Part shown: positions 4,201 through 25,894 of the stretch, in pieces
Numbering within the stretch: position 1 is the first letter of the stretch
How the letters are laid out: each line of letters opens with the position of its first letter
Translations under genes and position numbers: made by a program
Notes under the pieces: model-generated
The model's database searches: none
The model's input: only the letters and a program-made list of their open reading frames with translations
What the model was told of the DNA's origin: nothing
Source of the DNA: an uncultured Myxococcales bacterium
Lineage (GTDB): Bacteria; Myxococcota_A; Bradymonadia; Bradymonadales; Bradymonadaceae
Assembly: GCA_913058025.1 (NCBI GenBank)
Contig: CAJXPN010000001.1
Span: 1 to 27,385 of the forward strand
DNA length: 27,385 nt
Reading direction: 5' to 3'

Positions 4201-4435
4201 CCTCGACCACGAGGTCCGCGTCGTCTCCGGAGTCGACGCCTGCGTCCTGGGGAGTTGGCCCTGTGTCCGGGGCGGCTGAGTCCACGCCTGGGTTTGCGTC
4301 GACGATCGAGACGTCGGGGCCTGCGTCCGTGCCCTCCTCGGTCGTGTCGTCACTGCACGCGGGAGCGAGCAGCGCGAGCGCGAGCGCCCACGTGGTCACG
4401 ACCGCTCGTCTGCTGCTCGTCTGGTCGTCGCGCAC
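1289..4435 (-). CDS. Large surface/outer-membrane lipoprotein with six IPT/TIG domains, a carboxypeptidase-regulatory-like beta-sandwich and an unknown C-terminal region (paralog A, 1048 aa)
   Basis: GGAGGAG RBS before GTG; lipobox LAPA|C (Cys27); acidic DAG/DTG-rich stalk. Six repeats start FTLTAIVPPTGPVEGG, LRLTSVTPARVPTSGG, LTVGAITPASGLAAGG, PQLLGVTPGSGPDEGG, VWIDGLSPSEGDVAGG and LEIWGYTPVRGAISGG, and most end in F/Y-x-Y (approx. 2610-4130). Confidence 0.88.
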   Translation of the reverse strand: MRDDQTSSRRAVVTTWALALALLAPACSDDTTEEGTDAGPDVSIVDANPGVDSAAPDTGPTPQDAGVDSGDDADLVVEDAGADAAPDADPVEEDTGPIDPDAFTLTAIVPPTGPVEGGSRVRISGEGLVEGTRVFLGSALMDVVPGGAGLVGDTPPALGSGPVTVKAIHPDGRVVALPDGFTYTNGLRLTSVTPARVPTSGGVELSLRGEGFSPEMAVSVGGEGALRVIFIDGETARALAPPRAEGVVDVRVTTRRGGAVAEDAVTYYSPLTVGAITPASGLAAGGETVVIEAPGVTVGATVRIGGAQAEVVSVDPVADTVTVRTPAGAVGAADVLIEAGGEAAFAAEAFYYRADDSPQLLGVTPGSGPDEGGATARVVGFGLDAPNARIAFEGSDATVIESGPTHAVVRTPAGALGLADVTLFDGAAELARLDDGYEYVATVWIDGLSPSEGDVAGGEAIRLQGEGFTGAEEVLFGSVPAAFTVLSDTEIDVIAPAHGAGEVDVEVRADGARGLLVDGYTYTEPLEIWGYTPVRGAISGGTFVTIRGRGFYGALEALVGGRRGSSLRRLDRNNLTFRTPAGAAGEAGVEVVEGARRALAPYDFEYYNPASRFGGASGAPIDGAVNVSVFDAGGAALPGAFVMLSTRPDTQYQGFTDVNGQITLSGADVLGAQTVTATAAGFSSALIQAIDAEDITIFLNPTEPPPPSPGGGGGGGDPPPFGIVRGVVTTPGKLSDPSDARTYDMVIVRTTQSSVFGGTPDPGPGSVVLGEGDYEINTRIGDLAVVAMCGVYDEDTDSFAPQYMAVERFLFISDRGEYEVDLECDIPLEEQLDVKLINPIYNPLGPDNNRVRAFWDFGFEGVFPSPTGASGLSSLLSITGQPALTGLLADVTVTLIGGSYTGQYEPLTQTSVTGISDMSQVVELGPLLDVPEPVRPLPDLFVVDNEIRWQADGPYYPDVTFLVLTNELGLPVWTAIVPGTQTSVRLPEFPDFSGLPAAERPVPYPAQRLFMRVTSASIDDFDFDALTYEDLGSDRWRVFARRRWAVRF
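2475..2519. repeat. 45-bp exact direct repeat shared by the two IPT/TIG paralogs (copy 1)
   Basis: ccctggtactgggtgtcggggcgcgtcgagagcatcacgaacgcg occurs at 2475-2519 and 5691-5735. Confidence 0.92.
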
Positions 4436-4492: not shown

Positions 4493-7400
4493 TCACAGCT
4501 GGATGAATCGCACCGCCAGCGAGTACGCGTCCCAGTTCGCCGGGTCGAGGTCGCCGTACGTGAAGTTGTTCACGTCCACGCCGGGCTTCTCGATCGCGTA
4601 GATGACCACGGGGGTCGAGATGCCCTTGAAGGGGGCAGGGCGGTCCTCCTCGGGCAACGCCGAGAAGTCCGGGAACTGCGGGATGCGCACGCTGCGGGCC
4701 GAGCCCGGCAGGAAGACGTCCCAGTAGGGCACGGGGCCGGCGATCGTGAGCTCGAGGATCTGCACCTGGAACATGTCCGGCTGGCGCGACGAGTTGTAGT
4801 TGAAGCTCACCAGGCCGTTCGTGGGCGAGGCGCCCTGGGCCGGGGCGGTGAACTCGGCCACACCGAGCAGACCAGGCAGCTCCACGAGCCCCGACGTGTC
4901 CGTCACGCCGCGCTTGAATCCGATCGAGAGCGGGTAGCCCGCCCCCTGCGCCGTGAGCGTCTGCGCGCCACCCTCGACGTCGTACTGGACGTCGGCGAGG
5001 TCGCCCGCCAGCGAGGGCAGGCTAGTCACCGTCACGAGGTTCGCGCCGCCGGGGCCCTTCGTGTTCCCGAGCTCACCGAAGACGCCGTCGAAGCCCATGT
5101 CCATCCACGGCTTGACGTAGGTCTCGTTCGGACCGACCACCGCGTCGAACGGCGTGTCGTTCATCTTCACGACCATCGTCTGGTCGAGCGGGATGTCGAG
5201 CTCCAGGTCGATCTGGTAGGTCTGCCCCTCCGAGGCCGTCAGGTAACGCTTCACGCCCATGGCGATGGGGGTGAACGTCCCGTCACGGTTGTCGTAGATC
5301 CCGCCGAGCACCACGATGGCGAGGTCGCCCAGGCGCGACGTGATCGCGTAGTCACCGTCGGCCAGGAGCACCGCGTCGGGGCCAGGGGCGGGGTTCTCGT
5401 TCCCCTGGCTCGCCTGGGTCGTGTAGACGTAGGCGATCTTGAACTGAGAGGCGCCCGGCTCGGCGAGCTTATTGAGGCCCTTGAGCGAGCCCTCGAAGCG
5501 CGCCGGCGCAGGAGGCGTGGGCGGCTCACCCTGAGACGGCGGGACCTCCGGCTGGAGGAACACCGTCACGTTCTCCGCGTCCACGCTCTGGACCGTCGAG
5601 GACGAGTGGCCCGCCGCGATCGCGGTGATCGTCTGCGCGCCGTAGACCTCGGGGCCCGACAGCGTGATCATCCCGTTGACGTCGGTGTAGCCCTGGTACT
5701 GGGTGTCGGGGCGCGTCGAGAGCATCACGAACGCGGTCTCGATGGGCGTGCCCGCGTACGAGTACACCGTCACGTTGACCGAGCCGCGGATCGCGCCGCC
5801 CCAGGAGCCACCGAAGCGCGCGCCCGGGTTGAAGTAGGAGAATTGCTCGGGCGAGGTCTTCGACTCGGCGCCGTTCGTGACGACCACGTCGACCGCTCCC
5901 GTCACGCCGGGGGGCGTGCGCACCGAGAGCGTCTGAGCGTCGAGCACGCGGACCTCCGGTGCCTGTGTGCCGCCGAACGTCACGTCCACCGCGCCCACGA
6001 ACCCGCGCCCGCGAAGCTCCACGTAGGTCCCGCCAGCGATCGAGCCGCGCACCGGGAACATCCCGTACACGTCGAGCTGCTCGGTGTAGGTGAACCCGTC
6101 ACGGAACGTCGCCTTGATGGGGCCACGCTCGACCACCACGTCCACCACGCCCGCCGAGCGAGAGGGCGCCGTCGCCGTGATCTCGGTCGCCGAGTCCACC
6201 GCGAACGCCGCCGGCACTCCGCCGAACAGCACGCGCGTGGCGCCCGTGTAACCCTCTCCCTCGATGAGCACCTGCGCGCCGCCTGCGGCGTCCGCCGTGT
6301 TCGGGGTGATGCGATCGATCCAGATGTCCGAGACGTACTCGAACCCGCCCGCGAGCGTCGAGCTGTCCGCGCCCGCGTTCACCACGACGTCCACGACGCC
6401 GATCGCGCCGGCCGGCGTGCGCACCACCGCGCTGCCCGTGTCCTGCGACACGATCGTCGCCAGCGCCCCGCCGAAGCGGACCTCCAAGCCCGCGGCGTCC
6501 AGCCCCGCGCCCGTCAGCGTCACGTCCACGCCGCCCGAGATCGGGCCGACCTGCGGTGAGACCGCCGCGACCGCGATCCCCGAGCCGTCGTCGTAATAGA
6601 ACGCGTCCGGCGCGATCGTCGCCTCACCGCCCACGAGCACCACGCGCACGTCCGCCAGCCCGGCCGAGCCCGCAGGCGTCGTCACCTCGATCTCGTCGCC
6701 GGCCGGAGACACGGAGGTCACCGTCGCAGGCACGTTGTCGAACTCCACCGCCGCGTCCTGCTCGAAGCCCGAGCCTCGCACGACCACCGCGTCGCCTCCC
6801 GCGGCCACGCCCACCGCGGGCGACAGAGACGTGATCTCGAGCGGGGCGTAGTACGTCACCGCGTCGGGCAACGTCATCGTCGCGCTGGCGTTCGTGACGC
6901 GCGCGTCCGCATCGCCGACCTGGCCCGCAGGCGCCAACACACGCATCAACGTCGGGCTGAGCAGCTCGTGGCGAAGCGCCGTCTGGCCGCCCAGGCTGAG
7001 GCGCGTCTGCGCGTCGAAGCCTGCGCCCTGAATCGTCAGCTCCACGCCTCCCTGCACGGGAATGTTCCTGGGGGTCACGCTCGTGAGGCCCAGCGAGGCC
7101 GAATACGAGAAGCCTCCCGTGAGCGTGTCGTCCCCGTACTCCGGGTCCAACAGCTTCACGTCCACCGAGCCCGGCGCCACGCCCGCGGGCGTGGCGCCCA
7201 CCAGCGTGCCCTCGATCAACGCCACTTGCGCAGGCGCGCCGCCGAAGTACACCACCGTCGCGTCGGTGAACCCGACCCCGTCGATCACGAACGGAGTCCC
7301 CCCATCCACGGGGCCTCGCGGCGGCACGAGGGTGTCCACGCGCAGCTCCGTGACCTCGAGGTCCGGCTCGTCCCCCGTGTCGGGCTCTTCGACGCTTGCG

Positions 7401-7654
7401 TCGGCGTCCTCGCCACCTCCGGTGTCCGAGACGCCGCCGTCATCCCCCGGTCCAGTGTCCTCCTCGGGCGTCCCGAGGTCGGGCGCCGCGTCCGCGCCGC
7501 CCGCGTCGGTCGTGGCGTCCGCGAACGCCTGCTCGTCAGGCTGCTGGGGCTGGCGATCCGGGTCCCCCGTGCACGCCCACGCGAGCGTCGCGGACAGACA
7601 CATCGTGATCGTCGCGCGTGACGCGCTCTTAATCCTCACACGGGGTGATGGCAT
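4493..7654 (-). CDS. Large lipoprotein with six IPT/TIG domains (paralog B, about 1053 aa)
   Basis: The best start is ATG 7654 (AGGAG RBS upstream); the ORF track extends to 7696. Lipobox LAWA|C, acidic stalk, six (V/I)xPxxGxxxGG IPT repeats (approx. 5825-7350). Colinear with paralog A, e.g. the shared AFVMLSTRPDTQYQG. Confidence 0.88.
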   Translation of the reverse strand: MPSPRVRIKSASRATITMCLSATLAWACTGDPDRQPQQPDEQAFADATTDAGGADAAPDLGTPEEDTGPGDDGGVSDTGGGEDADASVEEPDTGDEPDLEVTELRVDTLVPPRGPVDGGTPFVIDGVGFTDATVVYFGGAPAQVALIEGTLVGATPAGVAPGSVDVKLLDPEYGDDTLTGGFSYSASLGLTSVTPRNIPVQGGVELTIQGAGFDAQTRLSLGGQTALRHELLSPTLMRVLAPAGQVGDADARVTNASATMTLPDAVTYYAPLEITSLSPAVGVAAGGDAVVVRGSGFEQDAAVEFDNVPATVTSVSPAGDEIEVTTPAGSAGLADVRVVLVGGEATIAPDAFYYDDGSGIAVAAVSPQVGPISGGVDVTLTGAGLDAAGLEVRFGGALATIVSQDTGSAVVRTPAGAIGVVDVVVNAGADSSTLAGGFEYVSDIWIDRITPNTADAAGGAQVLIEGEGYTGATRVLFGGVPAAFAVDSATEITATAPSRSAGVVDVVVERGPIKATFRDGFTYTEQLDVYGMFPVRGSIAGGTYVELRGRGFVGAVDVTFGGTQAPEVRVLDAQTLSVRTPPGVTGAVDVVVTNGAESKTSPEQFSYFNPGARFGGSWGGAIRGSVNVTVYSYAGTPIETAFVMLSTRPDTQYQGYTDVNGMITLSGPEVYGAQTITAIAAGHSSSTVQSVDAENVTVFLQPEVPPSQGEPPTPPAPARFEGSLKGLNKLAEPGASQFKIAYVYTTQASQGNENPAPGPDAVLLADGDYAITSRLGDLAIVVLGGIYDNRDGTFTPIAMGVKRYLTASEGQTYQIDLELDIPLDQTMVVKMNDTPFDAVVGPNETYVKPWMDMGFDGVFGELGNTKGPGGANLVTVTSLPSLAGDLADVQYDVEGGAQTLTAQGAGYPLSIGFKRGVTDTSGLVELPGLLGVAEFTAPAQGASPTNGLVSFNYNSSRQPDMFQVQILELTIAGPVPYWDVFLPGSARSVRIPQFPDFSALPEEDRPAPFKGISTPVVIYAIEKPGVDVNNFTYGDLDPANWDAYSLAVRFIQL
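5691..5735. repeat. 45-bp exact direct repeat shared by the two IPT/TIG paralogs (copy 2)
   Basis: Identical to 2475-2519; encodes AFVMLSTRPDTQYQG on the minus strand. Confidence 0.92.
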
Positions 7655-7736
7655 CGCTCTCTTCTCCTGTATCTCTTTCATGGCGCGCCGCGGCACTGTG
7701 GGCCACGCCGTCGCGTCGAGTCTCTCTTACGCGGTG

Positions 7737-7884: not shown

Positions 7885-9255
7885 TCAGTCCGTCGTGTTC
7901 GACGTCAGCGTCGTCATGCCTGTCTCCTCGTCGTACTTGACGTGGATCGTGAGGTGCTCCTTGCCCTTCGAGAAGTGCATCCAACGCGCGTTGCTGGGGA
8001 GGCCCTCGCCCTGGCTCTTGTACACCTGGCCGATGGTGTCGTGGATCTCGCTGAGCTTCCAACCCTTCCTGCTCAGGTCGTCGACGTAGTGCTCGATGAC
8101 CTGAACCGGTGAGCGCTTCACGCGCAGCACGTCCGAGGCGTAGTTGCTCTCGCGGCCGTTGCCCTTGAATGAGAGTGCGCGCTGGCACCCGTCGCACTTC
8201 TCGAACGCGCTGGTGCGCGCCGCCGAGTCCGGCAGGTCCTGAGAGCTGGCGAGCGAGAGGTCGAAGTCCTCGTCGCTCCACATCGCCGTGACCGCGCTCG
8301 AGCCGCTCTCCTTGTCGTAGAACGCCTCGATCTGGCGGACCGCGCGGATCCTGGACTCGAACTGCTCCGTGGACTCCTTGGCGAACTCCTGGAACAGCGT
8401 GTTGACCTGGGGGCAGCCGAGCAGCGACTTGTCCGCCTCGAAGATCGCCTTCATCGCGTCCATCTTGCGCGCCGTGTTCGCGTACGCGTCCTGCTCCTCG
8501 TTGCAGACCCCGCCCGAGCAGGTCGTCTTCTCCTGCTTGTCGAGCGCCATCCCGAGCTTCGTCGCGGCCTGCTGCATCTCGCCGTCGGCCTCGACCGCGC
8601 GCTCGACCTCCGTGTCGAAGTAGGTCTCGTCTCCGCCACAAGAGACGTAGGCAGTGCGGAACTTCTGGCCGTACTTCTCGAGCTTGGCCGTGCGCTGCGC
8701 CATCGTCTCCTTGAGCGCACCATCACCCTGCTCGGACGGGTGCGCGTACTCCGCGCCTCCCATCGACATGTAGTTGTTCGTGATCATCTGCGGCAGGATC
8801 TCTCCGTTCGCGGCGGCCTCGTACATCTCCTGGAGGTCCTCGGAGGGCTTCTCCTGGGAGTTCTCGTCGGCGAGCTCGTGCGCGAGCGCAGGGACGAGGT
8901 GTTGGCGGCTGTTGACGCCCTGCACGACGAACGCTTCCTGGTAGTCCTGGAGAAGATCCTCGGGGGTCTTGCCCATGACCTCTCGGGTCGAGAAGTAGAC
9001 CGTGTTTCCGTTGAAGTCGTAGACGCGCGGAGGCTCGTGACCCATCTTCTCCAGGGCCGCGGTGAACTTCTGCGTCGACGACCGGTCGGTCAGCTGAGTC
9101 GTCACGATGTCTGCGTGGCCCTCGCTCACCAGCGTGATTCCGTCGTCTTGCGACGACTCCTGGGGCGGGTTCAGCGTCAGAATCGCTCCCCCGGCGCCCG
9201 CGATCACGAGCATCGTCAAGCCGACCCTCGCTGCTCCTGTCATGAGTTCTCTCAT
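7885..9255 (-). CDS. Hypothetical exported/membrane-anchored protein, last gene of the Tad pseudopilin operon (about 456 aa)
   Basis: Long ORF with native codon usage; AGGAG RBS before ATG 9255 (alternative ATG 9276 overlaps the upstream stop); one N-terminal hydrophobic segment (VGLTMLVIAGAGGAILTL); 6 Cys; no recognisable catalytic motif. Confidence 0.8.
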   Translation of the reverse strand: MRELMTGAARVGLTMLVIAGAGGAILTLNPPQESSQDDGITLVSEGHADIVTTQLTDRSSTQKFTAALEKMGHEPPRVYDFNGNTVYFSTREVMGKTPEDLLQDYQEAFVVQGVNSRQHLVPALAHELADENSQEKPSEDLQEMYEAAANGEILPQMITNNYMSMGGAEYAHPSEQGDGALKETMAQRTAKLEKYGQKFRTAYVSCGGDETYFDTEVERAVEADGEMQQAATKLGMALDKQEKTTCSGGVCNEEQDAYANTARKMDAMKAIFEADKSLLGCPQVNTLFQEFAKESTEQFESRIRAVRQIEAFYDKESGSSAVTAMWSDEDFDLSLASSQDLPDSAARTSAFEKCDGCQRALSFKGNGRESNYASDVLRVKRSPVQVIEHYVDDLSRKGWKLSEIHDTIGQVYKSQGEGLPSNARWMHFSKGKEHLTIHVKYDEETGMTTLTSNTTD

Positions 9256-9269
9256 AGTCTGCTCCTGGG

Positions 9270-10067
9270 TCAGCATTTCCACGTCGCTTTCTTGACACCC
9301 AGGACATTGCCCAGGCAGGCGGACTCTTTCTGCGCCGGGATTCGCGAGAAGCCGACCGTCACCAACTCGTTGACGATGCTGCCTCCCACTCCAGCGGGCG
9401 AGACCATCACGTCGTAACCGTTCTCGTAGCTGTAGTTGAACCTGCCGATGCTGCCGCTTCGGGACGCGCTGCCCGCCGCGGTGCCGTAGCGAATGCCCGC
9501 ACCCTGCGCGTGGCGCGAGCCACCGATCGAGTAGGGAACCGACAGCGCGAACACCACGATTCGTCCGCTCGGGAACGGCAACGGATCAAAGATCTTCGAG
9601 TCCGACGTCATCTTCTTGGCGAAGTCCGCGCCCTCTTTGGGCACCGCGGGCGGGTTGCCCTTGGCGGCGCTCTTCCACCAACTCGCCGTACGCTCAGCCT
9701 GCTTCAGGTGGCCCTGGAACAGCCCGATCGATGAGAGCATCTGCGGGAGATCTCCTCCCGGGCTCGAGTGGCTCGAGATCTCCCCGAGCTCGTTCACTGC
9801 CGCCATGATCGGCATCGAGTGATCGAAACCTGGAAACATATCGTTCTTGGTGTTGTGCACCGGGATCGCTTCATTCCACGTCGCACGCACCGCGGCGAGC
9901 TTCGTACGCACGCTCTCCTTCTCCATCCTCGTCAGGCTCCCCACGCCCGCGAAGATGATGATGAACACCGGCAGCGTAATCACGAACTCCGTCAGAGACG
10001 TGCCGCGCTGATCACGATCGAACCCACGCAGTAACGAGAGCATTTTCTTCTTCATTTTCGTCCTCAT
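9270..10067 (-). CDS. TadE/TadG-like type IVc pseudopilin (minor pilin)
   Basis: Prepilin motif FDRDQRG|TSLTEFVITLPVFIIIFAGV with Glu at +5 and a hydrophobic alpha1; C-terminal Cys pair (ESAC...TWKC). The start could be 10067 or 10055. Confidence 0.85.
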   Translation of the reverse strand: MRTKMKKKMLSLLRGFDRDQRGTSLTEFVITLPVFIIIFAGVGSLTRMEKESVRTKLAAVRATWNEAIPVHNTKNDMFPGFDHSMPIMAAVNELGEISSHSSPGGDLPQMLSSIGLFQGHLKQAERTASWWKSAAKGNPPAVPKEGADFAKKMTSDSKIFDPLPFPSGRIVVFALSVPYSIGGSRHAQGAGIRYGTAAGSASRSGSIGRFNYSYENGYDVMVSPAGVGGSIVNELVTVGFSRIPAQKESACLGNVLGVKKATWKC

Positions 10068-10083
10068 CCTCGCCCTCGCGTGA

Positions 10084-11502
10084 TCACTTGTGGAGGCCAT
10101 CGTACAGGTACTTGCTGTCGCTGTTCCCGTGCTTGTTCTCGCTGTCCATCGCCTTGAACGCGTTGTTCGCGTGCATGTAGAGGTCCATGATGAAGTCCAT
10201 GCCCATCGCGTTGAAGTTCAGGCCCATCGGCCCCGACATGAACAGCATGTTGCTGCCGTTCTCGCCCGAGCCCCTGTTCGCCTTGAACATGTCCTCGAAC
10301 TTCACCGGGATCTTCTCGTTCGGGAGCACCACGGGGCGCAGCTTCCCTATCCAACCCGGGTGGAACATCCACATGTCGTGGTCGCCGTCCATGAGCGGGA
10401 GCGTCCAGGGCTTGTTGTTCTCCGGGAAGATGAACTCGCCTCGCGCCATCGCCCATGTCCCGCCCGAGGACTTGTACCCGAAGTAGGCTCCAGAGCGCCG
10501 ATCCACGGTCTGCTTCTTCATGTAGTTGTAGTTGTCGTTGAGCTTGTTCGCCATGTCCGGGTTGTAGCGGTACGTGAACATCATGTTCGACTTACGCATC
10601 AGGTCCCGGCCATCGTCGCCATCGGCGTCGTTGTACCAGGGCTTCATCTGCCTGGGCCCCAGGGCCCACATGAAGAGGCAGCCCATGTACGAGTAGGCGA
10701 TGCTCGCGACCTCGCGCGGGCCCTTCCTGGCCCACAGCGGCTTCGAGCTGCTCAGGCGCTTGTGCTCCTCGAAGTTCATCATCCACTCGAGCAGCGTGAT
10801 CGGCGTCGAGGGGTTGCTCCCGATCAGCGGGATGGGGTCCAGACAGACCTCCATCTTCCCGCCTTCCTTGAGCGGGAGCTCCGACTTGAACGAGGTCGTG
10901 TTCGGGTGCGGGTACGTTCCCACCATGTCCGAGCCGTTGCGCAGCGACCGCTGGAGCCCCTCGCCCATGGCCCAGAAACCCGAGTACGTCTTCATCGACT
11001 TCTGGTAGCTGTCCAGGTCCTTCAGGTTCTTGATGATCTTCGAACTCCCGAACATCCCGATGACGTACCTGATGTACTTGATGCCCGCGGTGATGGGCAC
11101 CAGCGACGCCCAGTTGCCCGAGCAGTTCAGGCACGCCGTCCAGCAGCCGCAGAACCAACCACAGCAGCAACGCGAGCACTGACCCGCCAGCCACCCCATG
11201 TACATGGGGTACTGGAACGCATACATGTTGTGGATGCCCGTCACCGTGCGCTTGCCGATGTTCGAGAACGCGATCGTGTTCATCGAACGCGCTCGCACCG
11301 ACACCTGACTGTACGCCCCTGTGTCGGCGGCCATCTGCGCGTCTATCTTGTCGCGCGCGGCCTCCCCCGAGTCGTAGATCAGCAGACCTATCATGAACAG
11401 AATCAGGATCGAGGCCATGCACAGCATCGCCACGGCACCTCCCTCATCCCTGTCGAAGCGACCGAGCGCGCCGAGCAATCTTTCCTGTAGTGACTGTATC
11501 AT
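10084..11502 (-). CDS. TadG-like (Tad domain) pilus-assembly/tip protein, 472 aa
   Basis: FDRDEGG|AVAMLCMASILILFMIGLLIYDSG...DAQMAADTGAYS...ARSMNTIAFSN is the typical Tad N-terminal pattern (G|hydrophobic helix, D-x-G, Q-x-A-A-D-x-A-A/G). Confidence 0.85.
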   Translation of the reverse strand: MIQSLQERLLGALGRFDRDEGGAVAMLCMASILILFMIGLLIYDSGEAARDKIDAQMAADTGAYSQVSVRARSMNTIAFSNIGKRTVTGIHNMYAFQYPMYMGWLAGQCSRCCCGWFCGCWTACLNCSGNWASLVPITAGIKYIRYVIGMFGSSKIIKNLKDLDSYQKSMKTYSGFWAMGEGLQRSLRNGSDMVGTYPHPNTTSFKSELPLKEGGKMEVCLDPIPLIGSNPSTPITLLEWMMNFEEHKRLSSSKPLWARKGPREVASIAYSYMGCLFMWALGPRQMKPWYNDADGDDGRDLMRKSNMMFTYRYNPDMANKLNDNYNYMKKQTVDRRSGAYFGYKSSGGTWAMARGEFIFPENNKPWTLPLMDGDHDMWMFHPGWIGKLRPVVLPNEKIPVKFEDMFKANRGSGENGSNMLFMSGPMGLNFNAMGMDFIMDLYMHANNAFKAMDSENKHGNSDSKYLYDGLHK

Positions 11503-11577
11503 CGATTCACCGACTTTTGTTTCGTACCTGTCTTTGTCACGTCGCTAACGCGCGACCCTTCCAACGCCTGCTCTTGC

Positions 11578-12609
11578 TCAGTCCATCGTGGGATACTTGG
11601 GCAGCGTGAAGTTGCGCCGCATGACATGGTAGTTGCCGTAGGCGCCCGTGCCGTTGCCCCCGTAGCAACCACGCGCGCGCTTCTCGCCGAACATGTAACC
11701 GAACCAGGGGAACAGGATCGGGAAGAGGTACTCGAACTCGACACCCACACGGCCTCCCGTGTTCACGACCTTGTACTGCTGCTTGTCGAAGCACATGTAG
11801 GCCGCGGTCATCTTGCGCGAGGCCCTCTTCCACGCCGAGCCGCCCTGGTCGAACGCCACGCTGAACGCGGAGTCCTTGACGATGTTCCTCGAGACGTTGA
11901 GGTCGAACGAGGCCCACTGCGCCTGGTTCCACCGCTGGCCCTCGGGCAGGACGCCGAACTTGTTGAACGCTCCGGCCATCACCGATCGCACGCGGCGGAA
12001 GTCGTCGTTCGAGCCGTCCGACTCGACGCGGCCGATGTGGAACGCGTTGGGGGCCGTCGGCGCCATGACTATGGCGGAGGCCGTCTTGGCCCGCTCGCGC
12101 ACCGTGACGTCCCACGTCGCGCCAGAGGCCGGCGGCGCTCTGTCCAGCTCGGTCTCGGGATGCCAGATCTGCGCCGTCCTGGCGCCCTGGTAGACCGCGA
12201 TGTCGGCGAGCAGCGCGCCGATGTTGAGCAGCGAGAGCTGCGCGATCCCGCTCGTGAGTGAGAGGAAGGGCACCAGGACGATGAGCGTCTCCACCATCAC
12301 CGTGCCACGCGCCTTTCGGATCACGCGCTTCGCGCTCGTCCCCTTGCGCGCCTTCCACGACCGGTAGGCGAGCATACATGTCGCGTACACCCCCACGCCG
12401 ATGCCCACCTGGAGCGCGATCTTGGTCCACGACATCTCGAGTACGCCCGAACTCATCGCGTCCACGACCAGTGCGATCGTGAACCGGTCGAGCATCGGCG
12501 CGCTCACGAGCGCCACCACGAGCAGCGCGCCCAGGACGTGGAATACACCCTCGGCAGCCCACCCGAGCGCCCTGGAAGTCGTCCCTCTCTTCACCCTATC
12601 GACGTTCAT
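11578..12609 (-). CDS. TadE-like pseudopilin with a long N-terminal membrane extension (about 343 aa)
   Basis: Internal motif RKARG|TVMVETLIVLVPFL...LADIAVYQGARTA matches TadE (E5; A-x2-G-A-R). ATG 12609 has a GAGGTG RBS overlapping the upstream stop. The ORF-track extension to 12837 overlaps the upstream gene and is rejected. Confidence 0.8.
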   Translation of the reverse strand: MNVDRVKRGTTSRALGWAAEGVFHVLGALLVVALVSAPMLDRFTIALVVDAMSSGVLEMSWTKIALQVGIGVGVYATCMLAYRSWKARKGTSAKRVIRKARGTVMVETLIVLVPFLSLTSGIAQLSLLNIGALLADIAVYQGARTAQIWHPETELDRAPPASGATWDVTVRERAKTASAIVMAPTAPNAFHIGRVESDGSNDDFRRVRSVMAGAFNKFGVLPEGQRWNQAQWASFDLNVSRNIVKDSAFSVAFDQGGSAWKRASRKMTAAYMCFDKQQYKVVNTGGRVGVEFEYLFPILFPWFGYMFGEKRARGCYGGNGTGAYGNYHVMRRNFTLPKYPTMD

Positions 12610-12614
12610 TTCGC

Positions 12615-14129
12615 TCACCTCGGTGCCTTGCGCGAGCCGCGCTGCTTCGTGCTCATTTTGTTGAACTCTTTCATGGCGTCGCCCACCCCGGCCATCTTTT
12701 CGTCGTAGTCGGGGTGCTCGGCCCGCAGCGCTTCCATGTTCGCCGCGTTCTCCTTGCTCCCCTCCATCTTGAGCTGCATCTCCTGCATGCCCTCGTAACT
12801 CTTCTCCATCCTGCCCTTGCCTCCGCCATCGCCCCACTGCTGGTACTGCAGCTGAGCCATCCGAGCGTTGACCGCAGACTGCATCTTCCTCAGGTCCGAC
12901 GCGTTGTAGTTCGTCACGCCCTTGCCGCGGTTGGTGACGATGTGCTTGGAGAAGGCCTCGAGGTCACCCTTCGACACGGCGTCGGAGATCGAGCTCTTCC
13001 CGATCTGGTTGCCGAGCCTGGCGCGCTCGTCCTGGTCCACGGCCTGGAGCTTGGCCAGGTAGACCTGCAACTCGAGCACGGCCGTGTCGAGCTGCGCCTG
13101 GCACATCAAGCCGTCCAGGTCCGCCACGGTCCCGAGGTCCTCGCCCAACCTCGCGCAGACCTTGGCCAGCGAAGGCGTCGAGGTCTTGACCTCCGGGGTC
13201 AGGCACTCCTCATGCTCGGTGAGCACGTACCTGAGCACCTCCAGCGTCTCCGACGTCGCGCTGTCGTCGACCACCAGGGCGCACACCCTCTCGAGCGTCC
13301 CCCGCTTGATCGCGTCCGCGCCGAGGTCGAGCTGCTGGATCTGCTCCTTGGTGACCGTCGTGCGCAGACCGAAGCTCGCCGCGAGCAGCTCATCCTCGAC
13401 CCCGAGGGCGTAGATCGAGTCCTCGCTGGGCTCGATCCTCGTCCACATGACGACGCCCTTGCCGAGCTCGTCCACGAGCTGCTCCACGCAGCACGCCCGC
13501 GTCCCCTCATGCCCCGCGCCGAGCGCGCAGCCGAGGAGCATCGCGCCCTTGACGTCTCGCTTCACCTCGAGCTGCTTGAGCGAGTCGGCCTGCGTGCAGA
13601 CCGCCTCGTCCGTGCTCATCATCATGACCTGGTGCCACTGGTTGGCGAGCTGGCGAACCAGCTCGTCCATCTGCTCGTACTCCGGCGCCGAGGCCATACA
13701 CGCCGTCGCCATCGCGGGGCTCGTGTTCATCAGGCTGAAGACCTCGTCGACCTCCACGTTTGTGCGCAGCATCTTCCCGCACGCTTCCAGGCGCACTCCC
13801 TCGTCCTCGTCGTCCAGCGCCTTCTTGAGCGCCGGCCCCTCGGCCACCGCCCTGAGCATCTCGGTGCGCACCTGAGGCACGCTCCACACGCCCGGCACCA
13901 TCCCGATCACCACCGAGAGCATCACGACGCCCATCATCAGGCCCATGCCTCGCTCGTCGCTGCGCAGCGTCGGGCTCACCGCGAACGCCACTCCGATCAA
14001 CGCCGGACAGATCGCCACGAGCCCCACGATGAGGGGCTGCGTCGGCGGCATCCAGGCCTCGACCACGTACAGCATGAAGCCGATAGTGGCTGCGATTCCT
14101 GTGAATATGACGGCTGCGATTGCCTGCAT
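12615..14129 (-). CDS. Hypothetical membrane protein: three N-terminal TM helices plus a Cys-rich alpha-helical (HEAT-like) domain; first gene of the Tad pseudopilin operon (about 504 aa)
   Basis: Three hydrophobic segments in the first ~85 aa; LKKALDDEDEGVRLEAC resembles a HEAT/PBS-lyase repeat; 10 Cys in the soluble part; stop codon 5 nt before the tadE-like start. Confidence 0.75.
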   Translation of the reverse strand: MQAIAAVIFTGIAATIGFMLYVVEAWMPPTQPLIVGLVAICPALIGVAFAVSPTLRSDERGMGLMMGVVMLSVVIGMVPGVWSVPQVRTEMLRAVAEGPALKKALDDEDEGVRLEACGKMLRTNVEVDEVFSLMNTSPAMATACMASAPEYEQMDELVRQLANQWHQVMMMSTDEAVCTQADSLKQLEVKRDVKGAMLLGCALGAGHEGTRACCVEQLVDELGKGVVMWTRIEPSEDSIYALGVEDELLAASFGLRTTVTKEQIQQLDLGADAIKRGTLERVCALVVDDSATSETLEVLRYVLTEHEECLTPEVKTSTPSLAKVCARLGEDLGTVADLDGLMCQAQLDTAVLELQVYLAKLQAVDQDERARLGNQIGKSSISDAVSKGDLEAFSKHIVTNRGKGVTNYNASDLRKMQSAVNARMAQLQYQQWGDGGGKGRMEKSYEGMQEMQLKMEGSKENAANMEALRAEHPDYDEKMAGVGDAMKEFNKMSTKQRGSRKAPR

Positions 14130-14218
14130 GATTTCCACGCGAGAGTTTGCGTTCGGTGCTCGCAGAGGACTGCGGTACACACCCGATGACGGGAGAGTTG
14201 GGAGGGGAAGTCCCTACT

Positions 14219-14247
14219 AAACTACCGAATCACATGGGGGAAAACAA
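14219..14247 (-). promoter_or_regulatory. Candidate sigma70 promoter for the Tad pseudopilin operon
   Basis: Minus strand TTGTTT (14247-14242), 17 nt, TAGTTT (14224-14219), with an A/T-rich tract immediately upstream. It sits in the divergent intergenic region; the consensus match is only moderate. Confidence 0.4.
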
Positions 14248-14339
14248 TGAAAAATGGCGGCTTACGGGTCTCCTCGCGATCTCCCCGGAGGCGCGGCTTC
14301 AGGGGCACGTCATCGATCGGAGGACGATCGTCACTCCCT

Positions 14340-14367
14340 TTGACTCACCCATAACCGGCATGACAAT
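14340..14367 (+). promoter_or_regulatory. Candidate sigma70 promoter for mutS
   Basis: TTGACT (14340-14345), 16 nt, GACAAT (14362-14367), about 55 nt upstream of the mutS ATG. Confidence 0.42.
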
Positions 14368-14421
14368 CTTCCCGCGCTGTCCCCGCCCAACGCTCAACAA
14401 CCCCTGCGCCCACACGACGTC

Positions 14422-17313
14422 ATGACCAAACTATCCCCCATGATGCAGCAGTACATGGACTGCAAGCGGCGCTACCCCGACGCGGTCCTCTTCTTCCGCC
14501 TCGGCGACTTCTACGAGATGTTCTACGAGGACGCCCAGGTCGTCTCACGCGAACTCGGCCTCACCCTGACCGCCCGAAACAAGCAGGCTGGCGAGGGCAT
14601 CCCCATGGCGGGCGTCCCCGTGCGCGCGCACCAGCAGTACGTCGCGCAGCTCATCGAGAAGGGCTTCACCGTCGCCATCGCCGAGCAGCTCGAGGACGCC
14701 TCCAAGACCAAGGGCATGGTCGAGCGTGACGTCGTACGCGTCATCACCCCCGGCGTCGTCCTCGACGCCGACAACCTCGACGCCAAGGCCTCGAACTACG
14801 TCGGCGCCATCGACACGCTGGGCGATGGCTCCGCCTCGAGCTATGGGCTCGCCTACCTGGACGTCTCCACGGGTGACCTGCGCGCCACGGAGGTCTCCTC
14901 GCTCGCCGACCTCATCAGCGAGCTCGGCCGCGCCGAGACCCGCGAGCTCCTCGTTCCCGAGTACGCAGAGGGCCTCGCCGAGATCCTGGGCAAGCACCTC
15001 ACGGGCGTCTTCATCCGCTCCAAACACCGCGAGTACTTCAGCCCCGAGGGGCTCATCCGCGCCGTCTCCAAGGGGCCTCGCCTCGGCGGGCACATGCAGC
15101 AAGAGGGCTACTTCCACGGCGCAGACGCCGTCTCGAAGCTCCTCGTCGGCGCGCGCTCGTCCTCGCTCCGCTCCCCGGAACTCGTCGAGTCCGCGTCCTC
15201 CGCCGTCCTCCGGTACGTCGTCAAGACCCAGCGCGGCATCCCCTCCCACGTCCGCCCCGTCTCGACCTACCGCTCCCAGTCCTTCCTCGTCATCGACGAG
15301 TCGACCAAGGCCAACCTCGAACTCACCGAGACCCTCATGGGCGGGCGCCGCTCCGGCAGCCTCCTGAGCGTCCTCGACAAGACCGTCACCTCGATGGGCG
15401 GACGCCGCCTTCGCCAGTGGCTCAACTACCCGCTCGTCGACGTCGACGCGATCCGCGCGCGCCACGACTCCGTCGAGGAGCTCATCGCCTACCCCGCCGT
15501 GCGCCAGGACGTGCGCGCCGCGCTCGATCAGGTCTACGACATCGAGCGCCTCTGCGGCCGCGTCTCCTCCGGCTCCGCCAACGCCAAGGACCTGCGCGCG
15601 CTTCTCTCCACGCTCGAGCAGATCCCGCAGGTCCAGGACATCCTCTCGGAGTGCTCCTCGGACCTGCTCGTGACCCTCCACGACGCGCTCGATCCCTGCG
15701 AGGAGTTGTGCGCGCTCATCGAGCGCGCCATCGTCGACGAGCCCCCCACCGCCCTGACCGAGGGCGGCATGTTCAAGCTCGGCTACCACGACGAGCTCGA
15801 CGAGCTCATCGACCTGTCCACCAACGGCAAGGATTGGATGCTGGCCTACGAGGTCAAGCAGCGCGCCGAGACCGGGATCTCCTCCCTCAAGATCAAGTAC
15901 AACAAGGTCTTTGGCTACTTCCTCGAGGTCACCAAGTCCAACCTCGACCAGGTCCCCGAGGACTACATACGAAAGCAGACGCTCTCCAACGCCGAGCGCT
16001 ACTTCACCGACGAACTCAAGGAGAAGGAGGAGAAGATCCTCAACGCCGAGGGCCTGCGTCAGACCCTCGAGTACTCCCTGTTCGAGGAACTCCGCGCGAC
16101 GGTCGGCGACCAGATCGCTCGCCTCATGCGCACCGCCAGCGAGCTCTCCAACCTCGACGTCGTCTCGGGCCTGGCCGAGCTCGCGCAGCGGCGCGAATAC
16201 TGTCGCCCCGAGATGACCGACGAGCCGATCCTCGAGATCGAAGAGGGCCGACATCCCGTCGTCGAGAACTCGATGCGTGACGGCGAGCGCTTCGTCCCCA
16301 ACGACGTGTCGCTGGGACAGGGGCGCCGCGTGGGCATCATCACCGGCCCGAACATGGCCGGTAAGTCGACGGTCATTCGCCAGGTCGCGCTCATCTCCTT
16401 GCTCGCTCAGATCGGCTCGTTCGTCCCGGCGCGCGCCGCGCGCCTCGGCGTGGTGGACAAGATATTCAGCCGCGTCGGCGCGTCGGACAACCTCGCCAAG
16501 GGGCAGTCGACGTTCATGGTCGAGATGACCGAGACCGCCCACATCCTCAACAACGCCACCAACCGTAGCCTCATCATCCTCGACGAGATCGGCCGCGGCA
16601 CCGCGACCTTCGACGGCCTCTCCATCGCGTGGGCCGTCGTCGAGCACATGCACGAGACGATCGGCGGGTTGACCCTCTTCGCGACCCACTACCACGAGCT
16701 CACCGAGCTCGCGCAGTCGCTCGAGGCCTCCTTCAACATGTCTATCGCGGTCAAGGAGTGGCAGGACGACATCATCTTCCTGCGAAAGCTAGTCGATGGC
16801 CCGGCGAACCACTCCTACGGCATCCAGGTCGGGCGCCTCGCCGGGCTCCCCGACGGCGTCGTCAACCGCGCCAAGGAGATCCTCGAGGTCCTCGAGGCGG
16901 GACGCTTCGAGGAGCTCCAGGCCAGCGAGCGTCCCGCTCGCCCCAGGCCCCTCTCGACCCCCATCTCCGACACGATCGAGGGCGGCGTGTCCATCGCTCA
17001 GACGCTGGGACAGGACCCACGCACGCAGGCGGCCCGGCCAGCCCCTGCGCCTGCGCCAGCTCGTGAGCACGCTCCAGCGCCTGCGCCGGCACCCGCCGTC
17101 GAGGCGGAGTTCGAGCCCGCGCATGCCTCACGGGATGCCGCTGCGGCGCCCGCGGGGGTGGACCCGAGGTCGCAGCTCTCGTTGTTCGGGTCGGGCGTCT
17201 CACGCGCCGAGGAGGAGGTCCTCGCGTCCTTGCGGGACGTGTCGATCGGTCACCTGACTCCACTCGACGCGCTCAACCTGCTGGACAAGCTCTCGCGTCA
17301 GCTTAAACAATAG
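14422..17313 (+). CDS. mutS: DNA mismatch repair protein MutS (MutS1)
   Basis: PMMQQY...LFFRLGDFYEMF (mismatch-binding Phe); Walker A GPNMAGKST; SDNLAKGQSTFMVEM; Walker B IILDEIGRGT; FATHYHEL; C-terminal beta-clamp motif QLSLF and TPLDALN tail. Confidence 0.99.
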   Translation: MTKLSPMMQQYMDCKRRYPDAVLFFRLGDFYEMFYEDAQVVSRELGLTLTARNKQAGEGIPMAGVPVRAHQQYVAQLIEKGFTVAIAEQLEDASKTKGMVERDVVRVITPGVVLDADNLDAKASNYVGAIDTLGDGSASSYGLAYLDVSTGDLRATEVSSLADLISELGRAETRELLVPEYAEGLAEILGKHLTGVFIRSKHREYFSPEGLIRAVSKGPRLGGHMQQEGYFHGADAVSKLLVGARSSSLRSPELVESASSAVLRYVVKTQRGIPSHVRPVSTYRSQSFLVIDESTKANLELTETLMGGRRSGSLLSVLDKTVTSMGGRRLRQWLNYPLVDVDAIRARHDSVEELIAYPAVRQDVRAALDQVYDIERLCGRVSSGSANAKDLRALLSTLEQIPQVQDILSECSSDLLVTLHDALDPCEELCALIERAIVDEPPTALTEGGMFKLGYHDELDELIDLSTNGKDWMLAYEVKQRAETGISSLKIKYNKVFGYFLEVTKSNLDQVPEDYIRKQTLSNAERYFTDELKEKEEKILNAEGLRQTLEYSLFEELRATVGDQIARLMRTASELSNLDVVSGLAELAQRREYCRPEMTDEPILEIEEGRHPVVENSMRDGERFVPNDVSLGQGRRVGIITGPNMAGKSTVIRQVALISLLAQIGSFVPARAARLGVVDKIFSRVGASDNLAKGQSTFMVEMTETAHILNNATNRSLIILDEIGRGTATFDGLSIAWAVVEHMHETIGGLTLFATHYHELTELAQSLEASFNMSIAVKEWQDDIIFLRKLVDGPANHSYGIQVGRLAGLPDGVVNRAKEILEVLEAGRFEELQASERPARPRPLSTPISDTIEGGVSIAQTLGQDPRTQAARPAPAPAPAREHAPAPAPAPAVEAEFEPAHASRDAAAAPAGVDPRSQLSLFGSGVSRAEEEVLASLRDVSIGHLTPLDALNLLDKLSRQLKQ

Positions 17314-17357: not shown

Positions 17358-19151
17358 ATGAGCCTGATCCCACGTACCGTGTTCGCCCTCGTGTCCGCGA
17401 CCTCGCTCGCGCTCTCCGCTTGCTCGACCACGGCGAGCGCCGAGCGCGTGGAGGTGACCGACGAGACTCCAACCCAGGACGAGGCCGCCGACCTGCTCGA
17501 CGCGCCCGTAGATGTGGCCGACATCGAGGCCGCCAAGGCGGCTCGCCGCGCCGAACTCCAGGAGGAGCAGGGCGCCGACTACCTCATCCCGCTCGCGTCC
17601 TCGCCCGAGCCGTTGGTCAAGATCGACGGGGACGCCGAGGGCTGGAACCTCCGCGAGGCCAAGGTCTTCAAGGACAAGCGCTACGTCGAGGACGGCGTCT
17701 CGCTCTGGTCGGGTTCCAAGGACGCCTCGATGCGTGTGGCCGTGCGCTCGGACGACAGCTTCGTCTACTTCTGGGTCGAGGTGAGGGACGACGTCGTCAT
17801 CTCCGAGGACGACGGCTCGGGCGATCCGGTCGATGGGGTCATCATCTGGCTCAGGGACCCGAACCTCGAGAGGATGGTCTCGCAGCTCCCGGACGGCACC
17901 GACGCGTCGAGCGCGGTGAACACCGAGGTCGCCTTCGTGGTCACGCCAGACGGTCGCCTCAAGCGCCACGACGACCCCGAGGGGGCGTTCGATCCTGCGT
18001 CGCTGCGCACGCGAACGTTCGAGACGCCGTCGGGTTGGGGGGTCGAGGCTGCGATCTCGGTCGAGGCGATGGGCCACGTCGCCTCGTTCCCCGCGCCGCG
18101 CATCGCGTTTCGCGTGGAGCTGCTCGACGGCGACGACAGGGAGAGGCTGGGCACGCAGACACGCCTGAGCATGCTCCCGAACCTGAAGGACGCCGCCGAC
18201 CGCTTCGCCGTCTTCTCCGGAGATGGGCTGCTGCCTCACCGCGCGCCCAATGGCTCGGGCGGTCGCCCTGGCGGGCTCGGCTTCTGGGCGCTCGAGGACA
18301 AGGAGTGGCGCTACACGACCTTCGAGGCGCTCCCGGAGGTCTGGCGGTTCGTGACCGACCCGAGCAAGCTCGAGGAGTCGCTCAAGGCATCCAACGAGCT
18401 GCGCGACGCGTGCCCCGAGTCGAAGTACGACAGCCACCTGATGGAGGCGTACCGCACCGAGACGGGCAAGCACTACGTGGGGTTGTTCCTGTGCGCGGGC
18501 CGTGAGCAGAAGGGCAAGTGCTCCGACGGCGCGAGGACGCGCGCGCTGTGGTTCCAGTCGGGAGGGAAGGGCGATGAGTACGCGATCAAGAAGGTCATCG
18601 ACGTATTCGGTGAGCCGCTCGAGCAGTGCCGATCGTCGGCGCCCGACGGGAAGCCGCTCTACCAGTCGATGTCGTTGACGCCGCTCGACTTCATCAGCGC
18701 GCACACCTGGGTGGTGAGTTGGAGGAGGACCTCGCGCGTGGACGGCGTCGCCGAGCTCACGGACGGCCTCCAGATCCTGAACACGCGACGAAAGGGCATC
18801 AAGCCGCTGGACCTCTACTCCTACAAGCAGCTCACCGATGGTGAGTACAGGACGGTCCACAGGAACGCGATCCACTTCGTGGAGGTCGACGACGTCGAGG
18901 GGCTCGACGTTTGCGAGATCGAGTACATCGAGGAGCAGAGCTGCAACAGGCAGGGGGAGTGCAAGGTCGATGAGCGCGGAGGCGAGGTCCTCACGCACGC
19001 GAAGATGTGGTCACCAGACGAGGCGACCTTCGAGCCCTACATGTTGACCAGGCACCCGAACTGCCGCAACGACTTCGACTTCTCGAGCCAGGAGGGGTTC
19101 CTGATGATTCACCTGGAGTCGCGCGTGGGCCTCATTCCGTCGGGGCGTTGA
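17358..19151 (+). CDS. Lipoprotein with an N-terminal CBM9/DOMON-like sugar-binding domain and an unknown Cys-containing C-terminal domain (597 aa)
   Basis: GAAGGAG RBS; lipobox LSA|C. VKIDGDAEGW...DASMRVAVRSDDSFVYFWVEVRDD...DGVIIWLRD...GWGVEAAIS resembles the CBM9/DOMON-like fold. Confidence 0.7.
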   Translation: MSLIPRTVFALVSATSLALSACSTTASAERVEVTDETPTQDEAADLLDAPVDVADIEAAKAARRAELQEEQGADYLIPLASSPEPLVKIDGDAEGWNLREAKVFKDKRYVEDGVSLWSGSKDASMRVAVRSDDSFVYFWVEVRDDVVISEDDGSGDPVDGVIIWLRDPNLERMVSQLPDGTDASSAVNTEVAFVVTPDGRLKRHDDPEGAFDPASLRTRTFETPSGWGVEAAISVEAMGHVASFPAPRIAFRVELLDGDDRERLGTQTRLSMLPNLKDAADRFAVFSGDGLLPHRAPNGSGGRPGGLGFWALEDKEWRYTTFEALPEVWRFVTDPSKLEESLKASNELRDACPESKYDSHLMEAYRTETGKHYVGLFLCAGREQKGKCSDGARTRALWFQSGGKGDEYAIKKVIDVFGEPLEQCRSSAPDGKPLYQSMSLTPLDFISAHTWVVSWRRTSRVDGVAELTDGLQILNTRRKGIKPLDLYSYKQLTDGEYRTVHRNAIHFVEVDDVEGLDVCEIEYIEEQSCNRQGECKVDERGGEVLTHAKMWSPDEATFEPYMLTRHPNCRNDFDFSSQEGFLMIHLESRVGLIPSGR

Positions 19152-19683
19152 GCGCCTCGGCGTGGAGGATGGCGTTCTCGACGTAGTGGTGCGCGCCGGC
19201 GCGCAGGCGGGTGACCTCTTCGGGCGTCAGCTCGCGTTTGACGCGCGCGGGTGACCCCATGATCAGGCTCCCTGGGGGGAACACGGACCGTGGCGTGAGC
19301 AGCGCGCCAGCGCCCACGAGTGAGCCCTCGCCGACGACGACCTCATCGAGCAGTATCGCGCCCATGCCGATGAGGCAGCCGTCCTCGACGGTGCAGCCAT
19401 GGAGGATGGCGCGATGACCCACCGTGACGTCCGCCCCCACGATCGTGGGGGCGACGCCAGTGGTCGCGTGGAGGAGCGCCTGGTCCTGGATGTTGGTGCG
19501 GGCGCCTATGCGGATGGGCATGACGTCGCCGCGGAGGACGGCGCCGTACCAGACGGACGCGCCCTGAGCGATCGAGACGTCGCCGATGACGTGGACGCCC
19601 GTGGCGACGAAGACGTCGTCGGCGAGCTCGGGGGCGTCGCCCCCGAAGGCGACGAGCGGTGAGAACACGGTCGAGGAGGACAT
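19132..19683 (-). CDS. Gamma carbonic anhydrase family protein (YrdA/PaaY/CaiE-like, hexapeptide repeat)
   Basis: VIGDVSIAQGASVWYGAVLRGD...IRIGARTNIQD...LLH...VTVGHRAILHGCTVEDGCLIGMGAILLD; the three metal-ligand His are present. Confidence 0.95.
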   Translation of the reverse strand: MSSSTVFSPLVAFGGDAPELADDVFVATGVHVIGDVSIAQGASVWYGAVLRGDVMPIRIGARTNIQDQALLHATTGVAPTIVGADVTVGHRAILHGCTVEDGCLIGMGAILLDEVVVGEGSLVGAGALLTPRSVFPPGSLIMGSPARVKRELTPEEVTRLRAGAHHYVENAILHAEALNAPTE

Positions 19684-19690
19684 GATGTGT

Positions 19691-21505: not shown

Positions 21506-21650
21506 CTGCAATCCGGGGTCTCGGTTGTCATGGAGTCGAGCCGCCGCGCGGGCAGCGCATGAGGCGTGTGCTGGAGCTGTCAGGATCTCACCAATATCCT
21601 TAACTGTCCCAGGGGCGATTTGGCAAGAAGAGAGCCGCCTCGTGTGCGCC

Positions 21651-22720: not shown

Positions 22721-23089
22721 ATGAACGTCTCGAAGATCATCGACGCCCCCGCCCACGAGGTCTGGGACGTCATCGCCCGTTTCGACAGGTGGCCCTCCTG
22801 GGGCCCCTCCGTCTCGCGCGTGCGCTGCGACGACGCGCTCGTGAGGGAAGGGGCACGGGGCGCCGTGCGCACGCCGCTCGGTGTGTGGATCGACTTCGAG
22901 GTCACGGACGTGGTCGACGGAGTGAGCTGGAGTTGGCGCGTGCTCGGCCGTGAGGCGACGGGTCACGCAGTCGAGCCGCTGGGGCACTCGCGCTCCAGGC
23001 TATCGTTCTCGCTGCCCTCCTGGGCGTTCCCTTACGCGCTCGTGTGTGAGCTCGCGCTCCGGAGGGTCGCGGCGCTCGTCGAGTCATGA
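22721..23089 (+). CDS. SRPBCC (polyketide cyclase/dehydrase-like) family protein
   Basis: VSKIIDAPAHEVWDVIARFDRWPSW...FEVTDVVDGVSWSW...GHAVEPLGHSRSRLSF is the typical SRPBCC pattern. GAGGGAG lies upstream of ATG 22721 (ORF track 22691). Confidence 0.85.
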   Translation: MNVSKIIDAPAHEVWDVIARFDRWPSWGPSVSRVRCDDALVREGARGAVRTPLGVWIDFEVTDVVDGVSWSWRVLGREATGHAVEPLGHSRSRLSFSLPSWAFPYALVCELALRRVAALVES

Positions 23090-25609: not shown

Positions 25610-25894
25610 CGTCGGCTCCCAGGTGCGCGCCACGCGCGGCGCACGCTTCGGTTCGTTCACTCTTCAATCTAGCCCCGAGGTGGGTCGGGGTCGAAGGGGT
25701 GAGCGATCGCGATGCGAGCGGTATCCGGTGGAATGTACCGATGGGGTGACGTGCTTAGATTGACTGTCGCGCGCGATATGGCGCGCGAAGACGCGCCCGT
25801 GTTAACAAGGGCGCTCCAATGCACACAGTCCGAGGGGTAAGGTTCACTTCCCCTCGGTCGACACACGATACGACCGTCACACGAGGAGCAGACC

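Follow-up and report, generated by a model that had tools for sequence, protein, structure and literature searches.

The closest described counterparts of the locus reported here are the tip complexes of the Tad-like Kil pilus of Myxococcus xanthus, in which the minor pilins KilL, KilN and KilM form four heterotrimers termed Tips (Herrou et al. 2025, Nat Commun 16:4425, PMC12075869). Three of the four Tips are encoded in clusters apart from the kil loci. Redundancy among the Tips is partial, their efficiency varies with the prey species, and they need the adapter Flp pilins KilK and KilO (PMC12075869). A defining property of such Tip clusters is that pilus polymerization and contact-dependent killing of prey require them. 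One set, kilL4, kilN4 and kilM4, corresponds to mxan_4658, 4659 and 4660, and a structural search identified 'potential novel Tip complexes' in Bradymonas sediminis, for which four models are given in Supplementary Data 5 (PMC12075869). Hidden Markov models of the Myxococcus tips detected nothing outside Myxococcota and almost nothing outside Myxococcales (PMC12075869). That the tips of Tad pili can be swapped is a concept dating from 2025, and M. xanthus is the only organism in which it has been tested. Here we describe a five-gene cassette at positions 7885-14129 of a 27,385-nucleotide stretch of DNA from an uncultured member of the Bradymonadaceae (assembly GCA_913058025.1, contig CAJXPN010000001.1), which we refer to as the window. 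We interpret the cassette, with a probability of about 0.75, as a KilL/KilN/KilM-type Tip of a Tad/Kil-like type IVc pilus whose core machinery is encoded elsewhere in the genome.

More distant parallels are found in two other groups of minor pilins. The canonical TadE, TadF and TadG proteins of the tad/cpa loci of Aggregatibacter, Caulobacter and Pseudomonas share with the cassette the PF07811 and PF13400 families, cleavage sites of the G|xxxxE type (the bar marks the cut), and a presumed role in priming or capping the Flp filament, but they are encoded as a single set inside the tad operon, whereas the genome described here has at least three dispersed sets, none of which is at the core locus. 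Type IVa pili belong to a different filament class from the Tad and Kil pili, and their alternative minor-pilin/PilY1 clusters (in M. xanthus and Pseudomonas aeruginosa) are dispersed priming sets, each with a non-pilin partner encoded in the same operon.

Organization of the cassette and its relation to published Tips

The window is the whole of contig C1 (27 kb) of a metagenome-assembled genome that is fragmented into 1273 contigs (6.14 Mb in total; completeness 87%, contamination 1.65%). The cassette consists of five intact open reading frames (ORFs), all on the minus strand and separated by successive gaps of 5, 75, 16 and 14 nt. Gene 1 (12615-14129, 504 aa) codes for a cysteine-rich protein with three transmembrane (TM) segments, an ARM/HEAT-like alpha-solenoid and a low-confidence helical tail, as seen in an AlphaFold2 (AF2) model. 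It is followed by three putative minor pilins: gene 2 (11578-12609, 343 aa), a KilL-like/TadE-like prepilin recognized by a sub-cut-off PF07811 match, its motif and a published model of its orthologue; gene 3 (10084-11502, 472 aa), a KilN-like/TadG-like large minor pilin with a PF13400 match above the cut-off; and gene 4 (9270-10067, 265 aa), a KilM-like/TadE-like minor pilin assigned from a sub-cut-off PF07811 match and its motif. Gene 5 (7885-9255, 456 aa), for which the evidence is an AF2 model and synteny, codes for an N-terminally anchored protein and is the 'fourth gene' of tip clusters discussed below. A preliminary description of the window had reported a five-gene operon with these gaps, flanked by mutS and a pair of IPT genes and unaccompanied by Tad core genes. 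The ORF coordinates bear out the layout, and whole-genome family searches agree on the last point, with no T2SSE, T2SSF, Flp, peptidase A24 or RcpC match on contig C1.

The pilin trio can be tied directly to one of the published B. sediminis Tips. The first 16 residues of chain A in model DN745_18665_18670_18675 are identical to a stretch of the gene 2 orthologue in L055, a locus from a complete genome, that directly follows the RG of that protein; L055 in turn shares synteny with the window across the five genes (24-45% identity). Genes 2-4 are therefore the orthologue of a published Tip. The published model is from a different genus and comprises the trimer only, with leaders removed and without the flanking gene 1-like and gene 5-like genes. 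It follows that the cassette cannot be regarded as the undescribed system that was first suspected, since dispersed and interchangeable KilL/KilN/KilM tips, including the B. sediminis orthologue of genes 2-4, have already been published (PMC12075869). The notion of a swappable tip cassette serving a machine encoded elsewhere is well supported by the data presented here, but it is not new (PMC12075869).

There are several points of likeness to the M. xanthus Tips 1-4. First, the order of TadE-like, TadG-like and TadE-like genes is that of kilL4-kilN4-kilM4. Second, there are several paralogous clusters in each genome, most of them away from the core machine. Third, both are predicted to form a heterotrimer with an alpha1N bundle and a variable distal domain in the TadG-like subunit, and both include cysteine-rich proteins. 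The differences are that no cassette at all is found at the core locus here, that the KilL-like leader is about 100 aa long with two TM segments, and that the unit includes gene 5 and, in many cases, gene 1.

Conservation of the cassette and its dispersal from the Tad core

Six other genera have the five-gene operon with its order unchanged, at 25-46% amino-acid identity, and its flanking genes are not conserved; retention of the order of five genes in six genera is not expected by chance. The co-conservation that the preliminary description had called for is thus observed. TadG-like relatives of gene 3 were found in all 24 genomes of the same family, with 1-7 search matches in each, and the gene 3 query gave no match in 16 searched genomes from other families of the order and class. 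The other TadG-like genes (ten loci in three complete genomes, and two more on contig C5 of the window genome) are without exception in a gene 2-3-4-5 arrangement. Complete relatives have four or five cassettes each.

Each of the three complete genomes contains a single TadB/TadC pair, from which every one of the 13 cassettes is separated by more than 100 kb. The core locus of one complete relative encodes RcpC, a secretin, an FHA-ATPase, TadB, TadC, an FHA protein and a TPR protein, and there is no cassette-type gene at any of the three core loci in these genomes. The locus and its relatives in the Bradymonadaceae represent a more extreme form of the tip-swapping design, with one Kil-like core free of minor pilins and several dispersed cassettes.

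A search of the window genome for a Tad core, proposed in the preliminary description, was successful. Contig C314 carries a secretin gene cut by the contig end, a gene for a 610-aa ATPase in which an N-terminal FHA domain is fused to T2SSE, and TadB-like and TadC-like genes; C547 carries genes for a 62-aa Flp-like pilin and a short 200-aa A24 prepilin peptidase; further Flp-like genes are on C243 and C293; and RcpC/CpaB is encoded on C657. The proposed search for additional cassettes likewise yielded two, arranged in tandem on C5 (L016, 4926-15387, plus strand; tblastn with the five proteins) between thymidine phosphorylase and RNase G genes. Each of these has gene 2-, 3-, 4- and 5-like genes in order and no gene 1-like gene. 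Upstream of the first C5 cassette there is also a faint Flp-like match (E 0.74), which was rejected because its frame differs from that of the gene located there. Every PF13400 and PF07811 match in the genome falls within the three cassettes, and since these contain the only TadE/TadG-type genes of the genome, the cell would be able to mount alternative tips on one machine.

Sequence features of the pilin trio

The Pfam gathering cut-offs are 22.9 bits for PF07811 (TadE) and 22.3 bits for PF13400 (the Tad/TadG-like N-terminus). Gene 3 exceeds the latter in both searches (24.2 bits by hmmscan and 28 bits in the genome search), and a C5 paralogue of gene 2 passes the PF07811 cut-off with 24.6 bits. 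Predicted cleavage sites, each followed by a hydrophobic helix, are present in all three pilins: RG|TVMVE in gene 2, GG|AVAML in gene 3 and RG|TSLTEF in gene 4. These class-III motifs are kept across the 19 cassettes compared, as RG|[STA]xxxE in gene 2 and [SG]G|A[IV] in gene 3, and the gene 4 motif G|xxxTEF is kept in nearly all of the 19.

The leader of gene 2 is unusual. It spans residues 1-102 (12304-12609, minus strand), contains two hydrophobic segments and a stretch rich in lysine and arginine, and precedes a mature pilin of 241 aa. In 19 of 19 cassettes the KilL-like leader measures 91-112 aa and combines two TM segments with a K/R-rich stretch, and leaders of this type far exceed the usual length of class-III leaders. 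Because the TM segments are even in number, the cut site would remain on the cytoplasmic face of the membrane. The conservation of this leader in KilL-like pilins is probably new, and such a long leader with two TM segments raises the question of what prepilin peptidases can process.

The mature proteins have a conserved base and a variable remainder. Across cassettes, identity is 46-59% over the first 50-75 mature residues and 10-47% over the remainder. The mature TadG-like subunit, in which the conserved part is the first 75 residues, ranges from 426 to 568 aa and has a conserved alpha1 helix and a variable distal region. Gene 3 has eight cysteines within 19 residues (109-127; 11122-11178, minus strand), and the mature TadG-like proteins of its orthologue group have 8-12 cysteines in all, compared with 2-8 in other cassette types.

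A predicted heterotrimer

The three mature pilins were folded together using family alignments. The prediction score was 0.83 in three runs, compared with 0.37 for the best control, although this score is the model's own confidence and was obtained outside the calibration conditions of the tool. In the calibration of the tool, 58 of the 80 solved complexes scored at this mark, as did 2 of the 110 mismatched pairs; these counts are only a rough guide here, given that the alignments were our own and the prediction involved three chains. The interface involves residues 1-50 of all three chains together with C-terminal contacts. The products of genes 2-4 are therefore predicted to join as a heterotrimer by way of their N-terminal helices, and the model agrees with the heterotrimeric tip envisaged in the preliminary description.

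Gene 5, a conserved fourth member of tip clusters

Gene 5 matches no Pfam or NCBIfam family. In its AF2 model (predicted local distance difference test, pLDDT, 81.7), a TM helix at the N-terminus is followed by a disordered flexible linker and two alpha/beta domains. A helical insert at approximately residues 185-302 is confined to this orthologue group, and the invariant positions comprise a CxxC motif and a small number of further residues. Structural comparisons are of limited help in assigning a role: a Foldseek search against the PDB gave nothing at E<=0.001, and the fold matches in the VIA-align and Atlas searches are generic (Mog1/PsbP/DcrB/SciW/AF_1845 START-like). Together with one match to a cluster automatically named 'T2SS protein K' (TM-score 0.40/0.57), they are insufficient to assign a function.

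The distribution of gene 5 is more informative. A word-based homologue search returned six proteins only, with uninformative names, and an exhaustive profile search recovered a family of 167 cluster representatives at E<=1e-30. A widened profile found members in 91 of 301 genomes of the phylum, including 25 of 26 from the Bradymonadaceae, and none in four other sampled families of the same class. A gene 5-like gene directly follows the KilL-KilN-KilM-like (L-N-M) trio in the 19 cassettes of the family and in all 16 inspected loci of other families. Every cassette has its own copy, and these copies differ between cassette types to much the same extent as the pilins (24% identity, compared with 22-31% for the pilins). 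No gene 5-like protein has a Pfam zinc-finger match; MXAN_4661, which follows kilM4 and is annotated as a 'putative zinc-finger', may or may not belong to the gene 5 family. The L-N-M-gene 5 module is also kept in a strongly reduced but complete 1.82-Mb genome of the same phylum (L097, 7037-10552, plus strand).

The main text of the published study contains neither the word 'accessory' nor 'transmembrane' and does not discuss neighbors resembling gene 1 or gene 5 (PMC12075869), and the recognition of gene 5 as a conserved member of these clusters is apparently new. The preliminary description had grouped genes 1 and 5 as two novel accessory proteins. This is borne out for gene 5 as a fourth member conserved across the phylum, and holds for gene 1 beside only about half of the cassettes; neither is in the main text of Herrou et al. 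2025.

What gene 5 does can be proposed only tentatively. Its likeliest role, given with low confidence, would be that of a membrane-tethered periplasmic protein that is specific to its cassette and assembles or loads the cognate tip. It would then bear comparison with the same-operon partners of type IVa minor pilins noted above, although gene 5 is tethered to the membrane, not secreted, and shows no resemblance to PilY1. Taken together with the leader of gene 2, a similarly speculative joint reading is that the gene 5 family is an unrecognized fourth component of Tad/Kil tips across the Myxococcota that chaperones or docks the cognate trimer and decides which tip is mounted, and that the two-TM leader of the KilL-like subunit is a pro-domain released into the membrane by the prepilin peptidase. 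A conserved, cassette-specific fourth gene is a concrete candidate for a determinant of tip selection, which is an open question in the published work.

Gene 1, a solenoid protein beside some cassettes

Gene 1 likewise matches no Pfam or NCBIfam family. The preliminary description had called it HEAT-like; no Pfam HEAT family is matched, but the AF2 model (pLDDT 74.6) is all-alpha and combines three TM helices at the N-terminus with an ARM/HEAT-like alpha-solenoid, and fold searches returned only generic importin/ARM-like repeat matches. Ten of its eleven cysteines are conserved at 90% or more, a pattern suggestive of a disulfide-bonded domain in the periplasm. A gene 1 orthologue is located upstream of the pilin trio in six of six orthologous loci; among 12 paralogous cassettes, four have a gene 1-like gene upstream, and two divergent copies are near a fifth. 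With lower confidence than for the pilins, we regard gene 1 as an optional accessory.

Proposed role of the cassette

We propose the following sequence of events for a Tip that serves a Tad/Kil-like core. By analogy with other members of the family, a prepilin peptidase encoded elsewhere in the genome would cut the three prepilins at their G|xxxxE-type sites, and the N-terminal helices of the pilins would then bundle into the heterotrimer. This trimer would prime a Flp filament on the single Kil-like machine, composed of the secretin, RcpC, the FHA-fused ATPase, TadB and TadC, and would end at the pilus tip with the variable distal part of the TadG-like subunit exposed. By analogy with M. xanthus, the tips would set which surfaces or prey cells are recognized by the pilus. 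The gene content of the cassette, its conservation, its dispersal from the core and the prediction of a trimer are direct results; processing, location at the tip, a role in contact with prey, and the roles of genes 1 and 5 are inferred.

Several points weigh against this interpretation. First, the PF07811 scores of gene 2 (15.5 bits, residues 102-144) and gene 4 (17.5 bits) are below the gathering cut-off. Second, the glutamate at position +5 is absent from gene 3. Third, the two-TM, 102-residue leader of gene 2 differs from ordinary prepilin leaders, and cleavage at RG|T is for that reason an assumption. Fourth, the link between the cassette and the Tad core in this organism depends on a metagenome bin only, and the trimer score is, as noted, a measure of the model's own confidence. 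Fifth, the best fold match of gene 5, PA1624, has a Z of 9.6 and a root-mean-square deviation of 3.1 over 106 residues, but Z values of 7-9 are near background for that search, such that the role proposed for gene 5 is only tentative. Sixth, no RNA run holds the locus, and the runs that do hold it are seawater samples that look like DNA. Finally, the predatory role is extrapolated from M. xanthus.

This last point bears on the alternative that survives best, namely that the cassettes form the same Tad priming or tip structure in an ordinary capacity, as redundant sets for attachment, biofilm formation or surface sensing and not for the recognition or killing of prey. Canonical TadE, TadF and TadG are required for pilus formation in bacteria that are not predators, and Tip-like complexes are predicted in non-predatory pathogens too (PMC12075869). 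Moreover, the Pfam and NCBIfam scans revealed no toxin or enzyme domain in the five proteins, and the presence of an L-N-M-gene 5 module in the reduced 1.82-Mb genome, which would be odd if such modules serve predation only, hints at a function that is not tied to a predatory lifestyle. Nonetheless, each complete genome has four or five diverged cassettes whose base is conserved and whose distal part varies, and this pattern resembles diversification of specificity more than plain redundancy. In having both an FHA-fused ATPase and an FHA protein the core is Kil-like, and the family resembles cultured Bradymonadales, which are predators according to the literature, a comparison that would favor a similar habit here. 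We consider a purely ordinary function unlikely on balance.

It seems considerably less probable that the pilins serve some other type IV filament (a type IVa pilus or a type II secretion-like system), or that together with genes 1 and 5 they form a stand-alone pseudopilus-like complex. The genome does have 11 T2SSE-type matches and three T2SSF-bearing loci, the cassettes never adjoin the Tad core, and every cassette includes its own membrane-anchored partner in gene 5. Against this, the pilin N-termini are of the Tad-specific TadE/TadG type, the Tad core has no other TadE/G-type genes to use, and the homologous dispersed clusters of M. xanthus are genetically tied to the Kil pilus (PMC12075869). 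A third, divergent T2SSF gene was considered as an alternative machine and rejected, as its B. sediminis copy has no recognizable adjacent ATPase and has neighbors that looked unrelated, as judged from their sequence starts alone. This divergent T2SSF-like gene (L098, 10186-11334, plus strand) has two weak T2SSF domains, and a counterpart is present on contig C1009 of the window genome. That the cassette is a non-functional relic is hardly credible, for although it is away from the machinery and has weak Pfam scores, its five frames are intact here and in six other genera, its motifs and gene order are conserved, and a Tad core is present in the genome.

A Tip for a Tad/Kil-like pilus encoded elsewhere is therefore the reading that we favor. 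The preliminary description had named three findings that would speak against it (a genome without a Tad core, genes that are not co-conserved, and pilins without a predicted trimer), and the sequence comparisons and the structural model point the other way on all three.

Flanking genes and other features of the window

The genes on either side of the cassette are not considered part of the system. Two IPT/TIG-repeat genes (4493-7696 and 1289-4435, minus strand; 1067 and 1048 aa, respectively) begin 188 nt downstream of gene 5 on the same strand, and mutS (14422-17313, plus strand) is divergently oriented upstream of gene 1. Both were evaluated as components and rejected, as neither is kept beside orthologous cassettes, and the IPT/TIG genes are probably unrelated to the cassette for this reason. 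The divergent intergenic region between gene 1 and mutS (292 nt, 14130-14421) is from its position the probable promoter region of the operon. A consensus promoter scan of this region found no site for the operon and one weak sigma-70-like site on the plus (mutS) strand, and promoter and terminator scans at the locus were uninformative overall.

Two seawater runs, X1 and X2 (34 and 41 million letters, respectively), hold more than 90% of the sampled words of the locus; they are very small, are labeled METATRANSCRIPTOMIC but are probably DNA, and may be where the assembly came from. Beyond mutS, the ORFs at 17358-19151, 19586-20836 and 21435-22520 have no Pfam match, and they lie near a gene (23084-25660, minus strand) that codes for an 858-aa protein with DUF4132 and DUF7737 domains.

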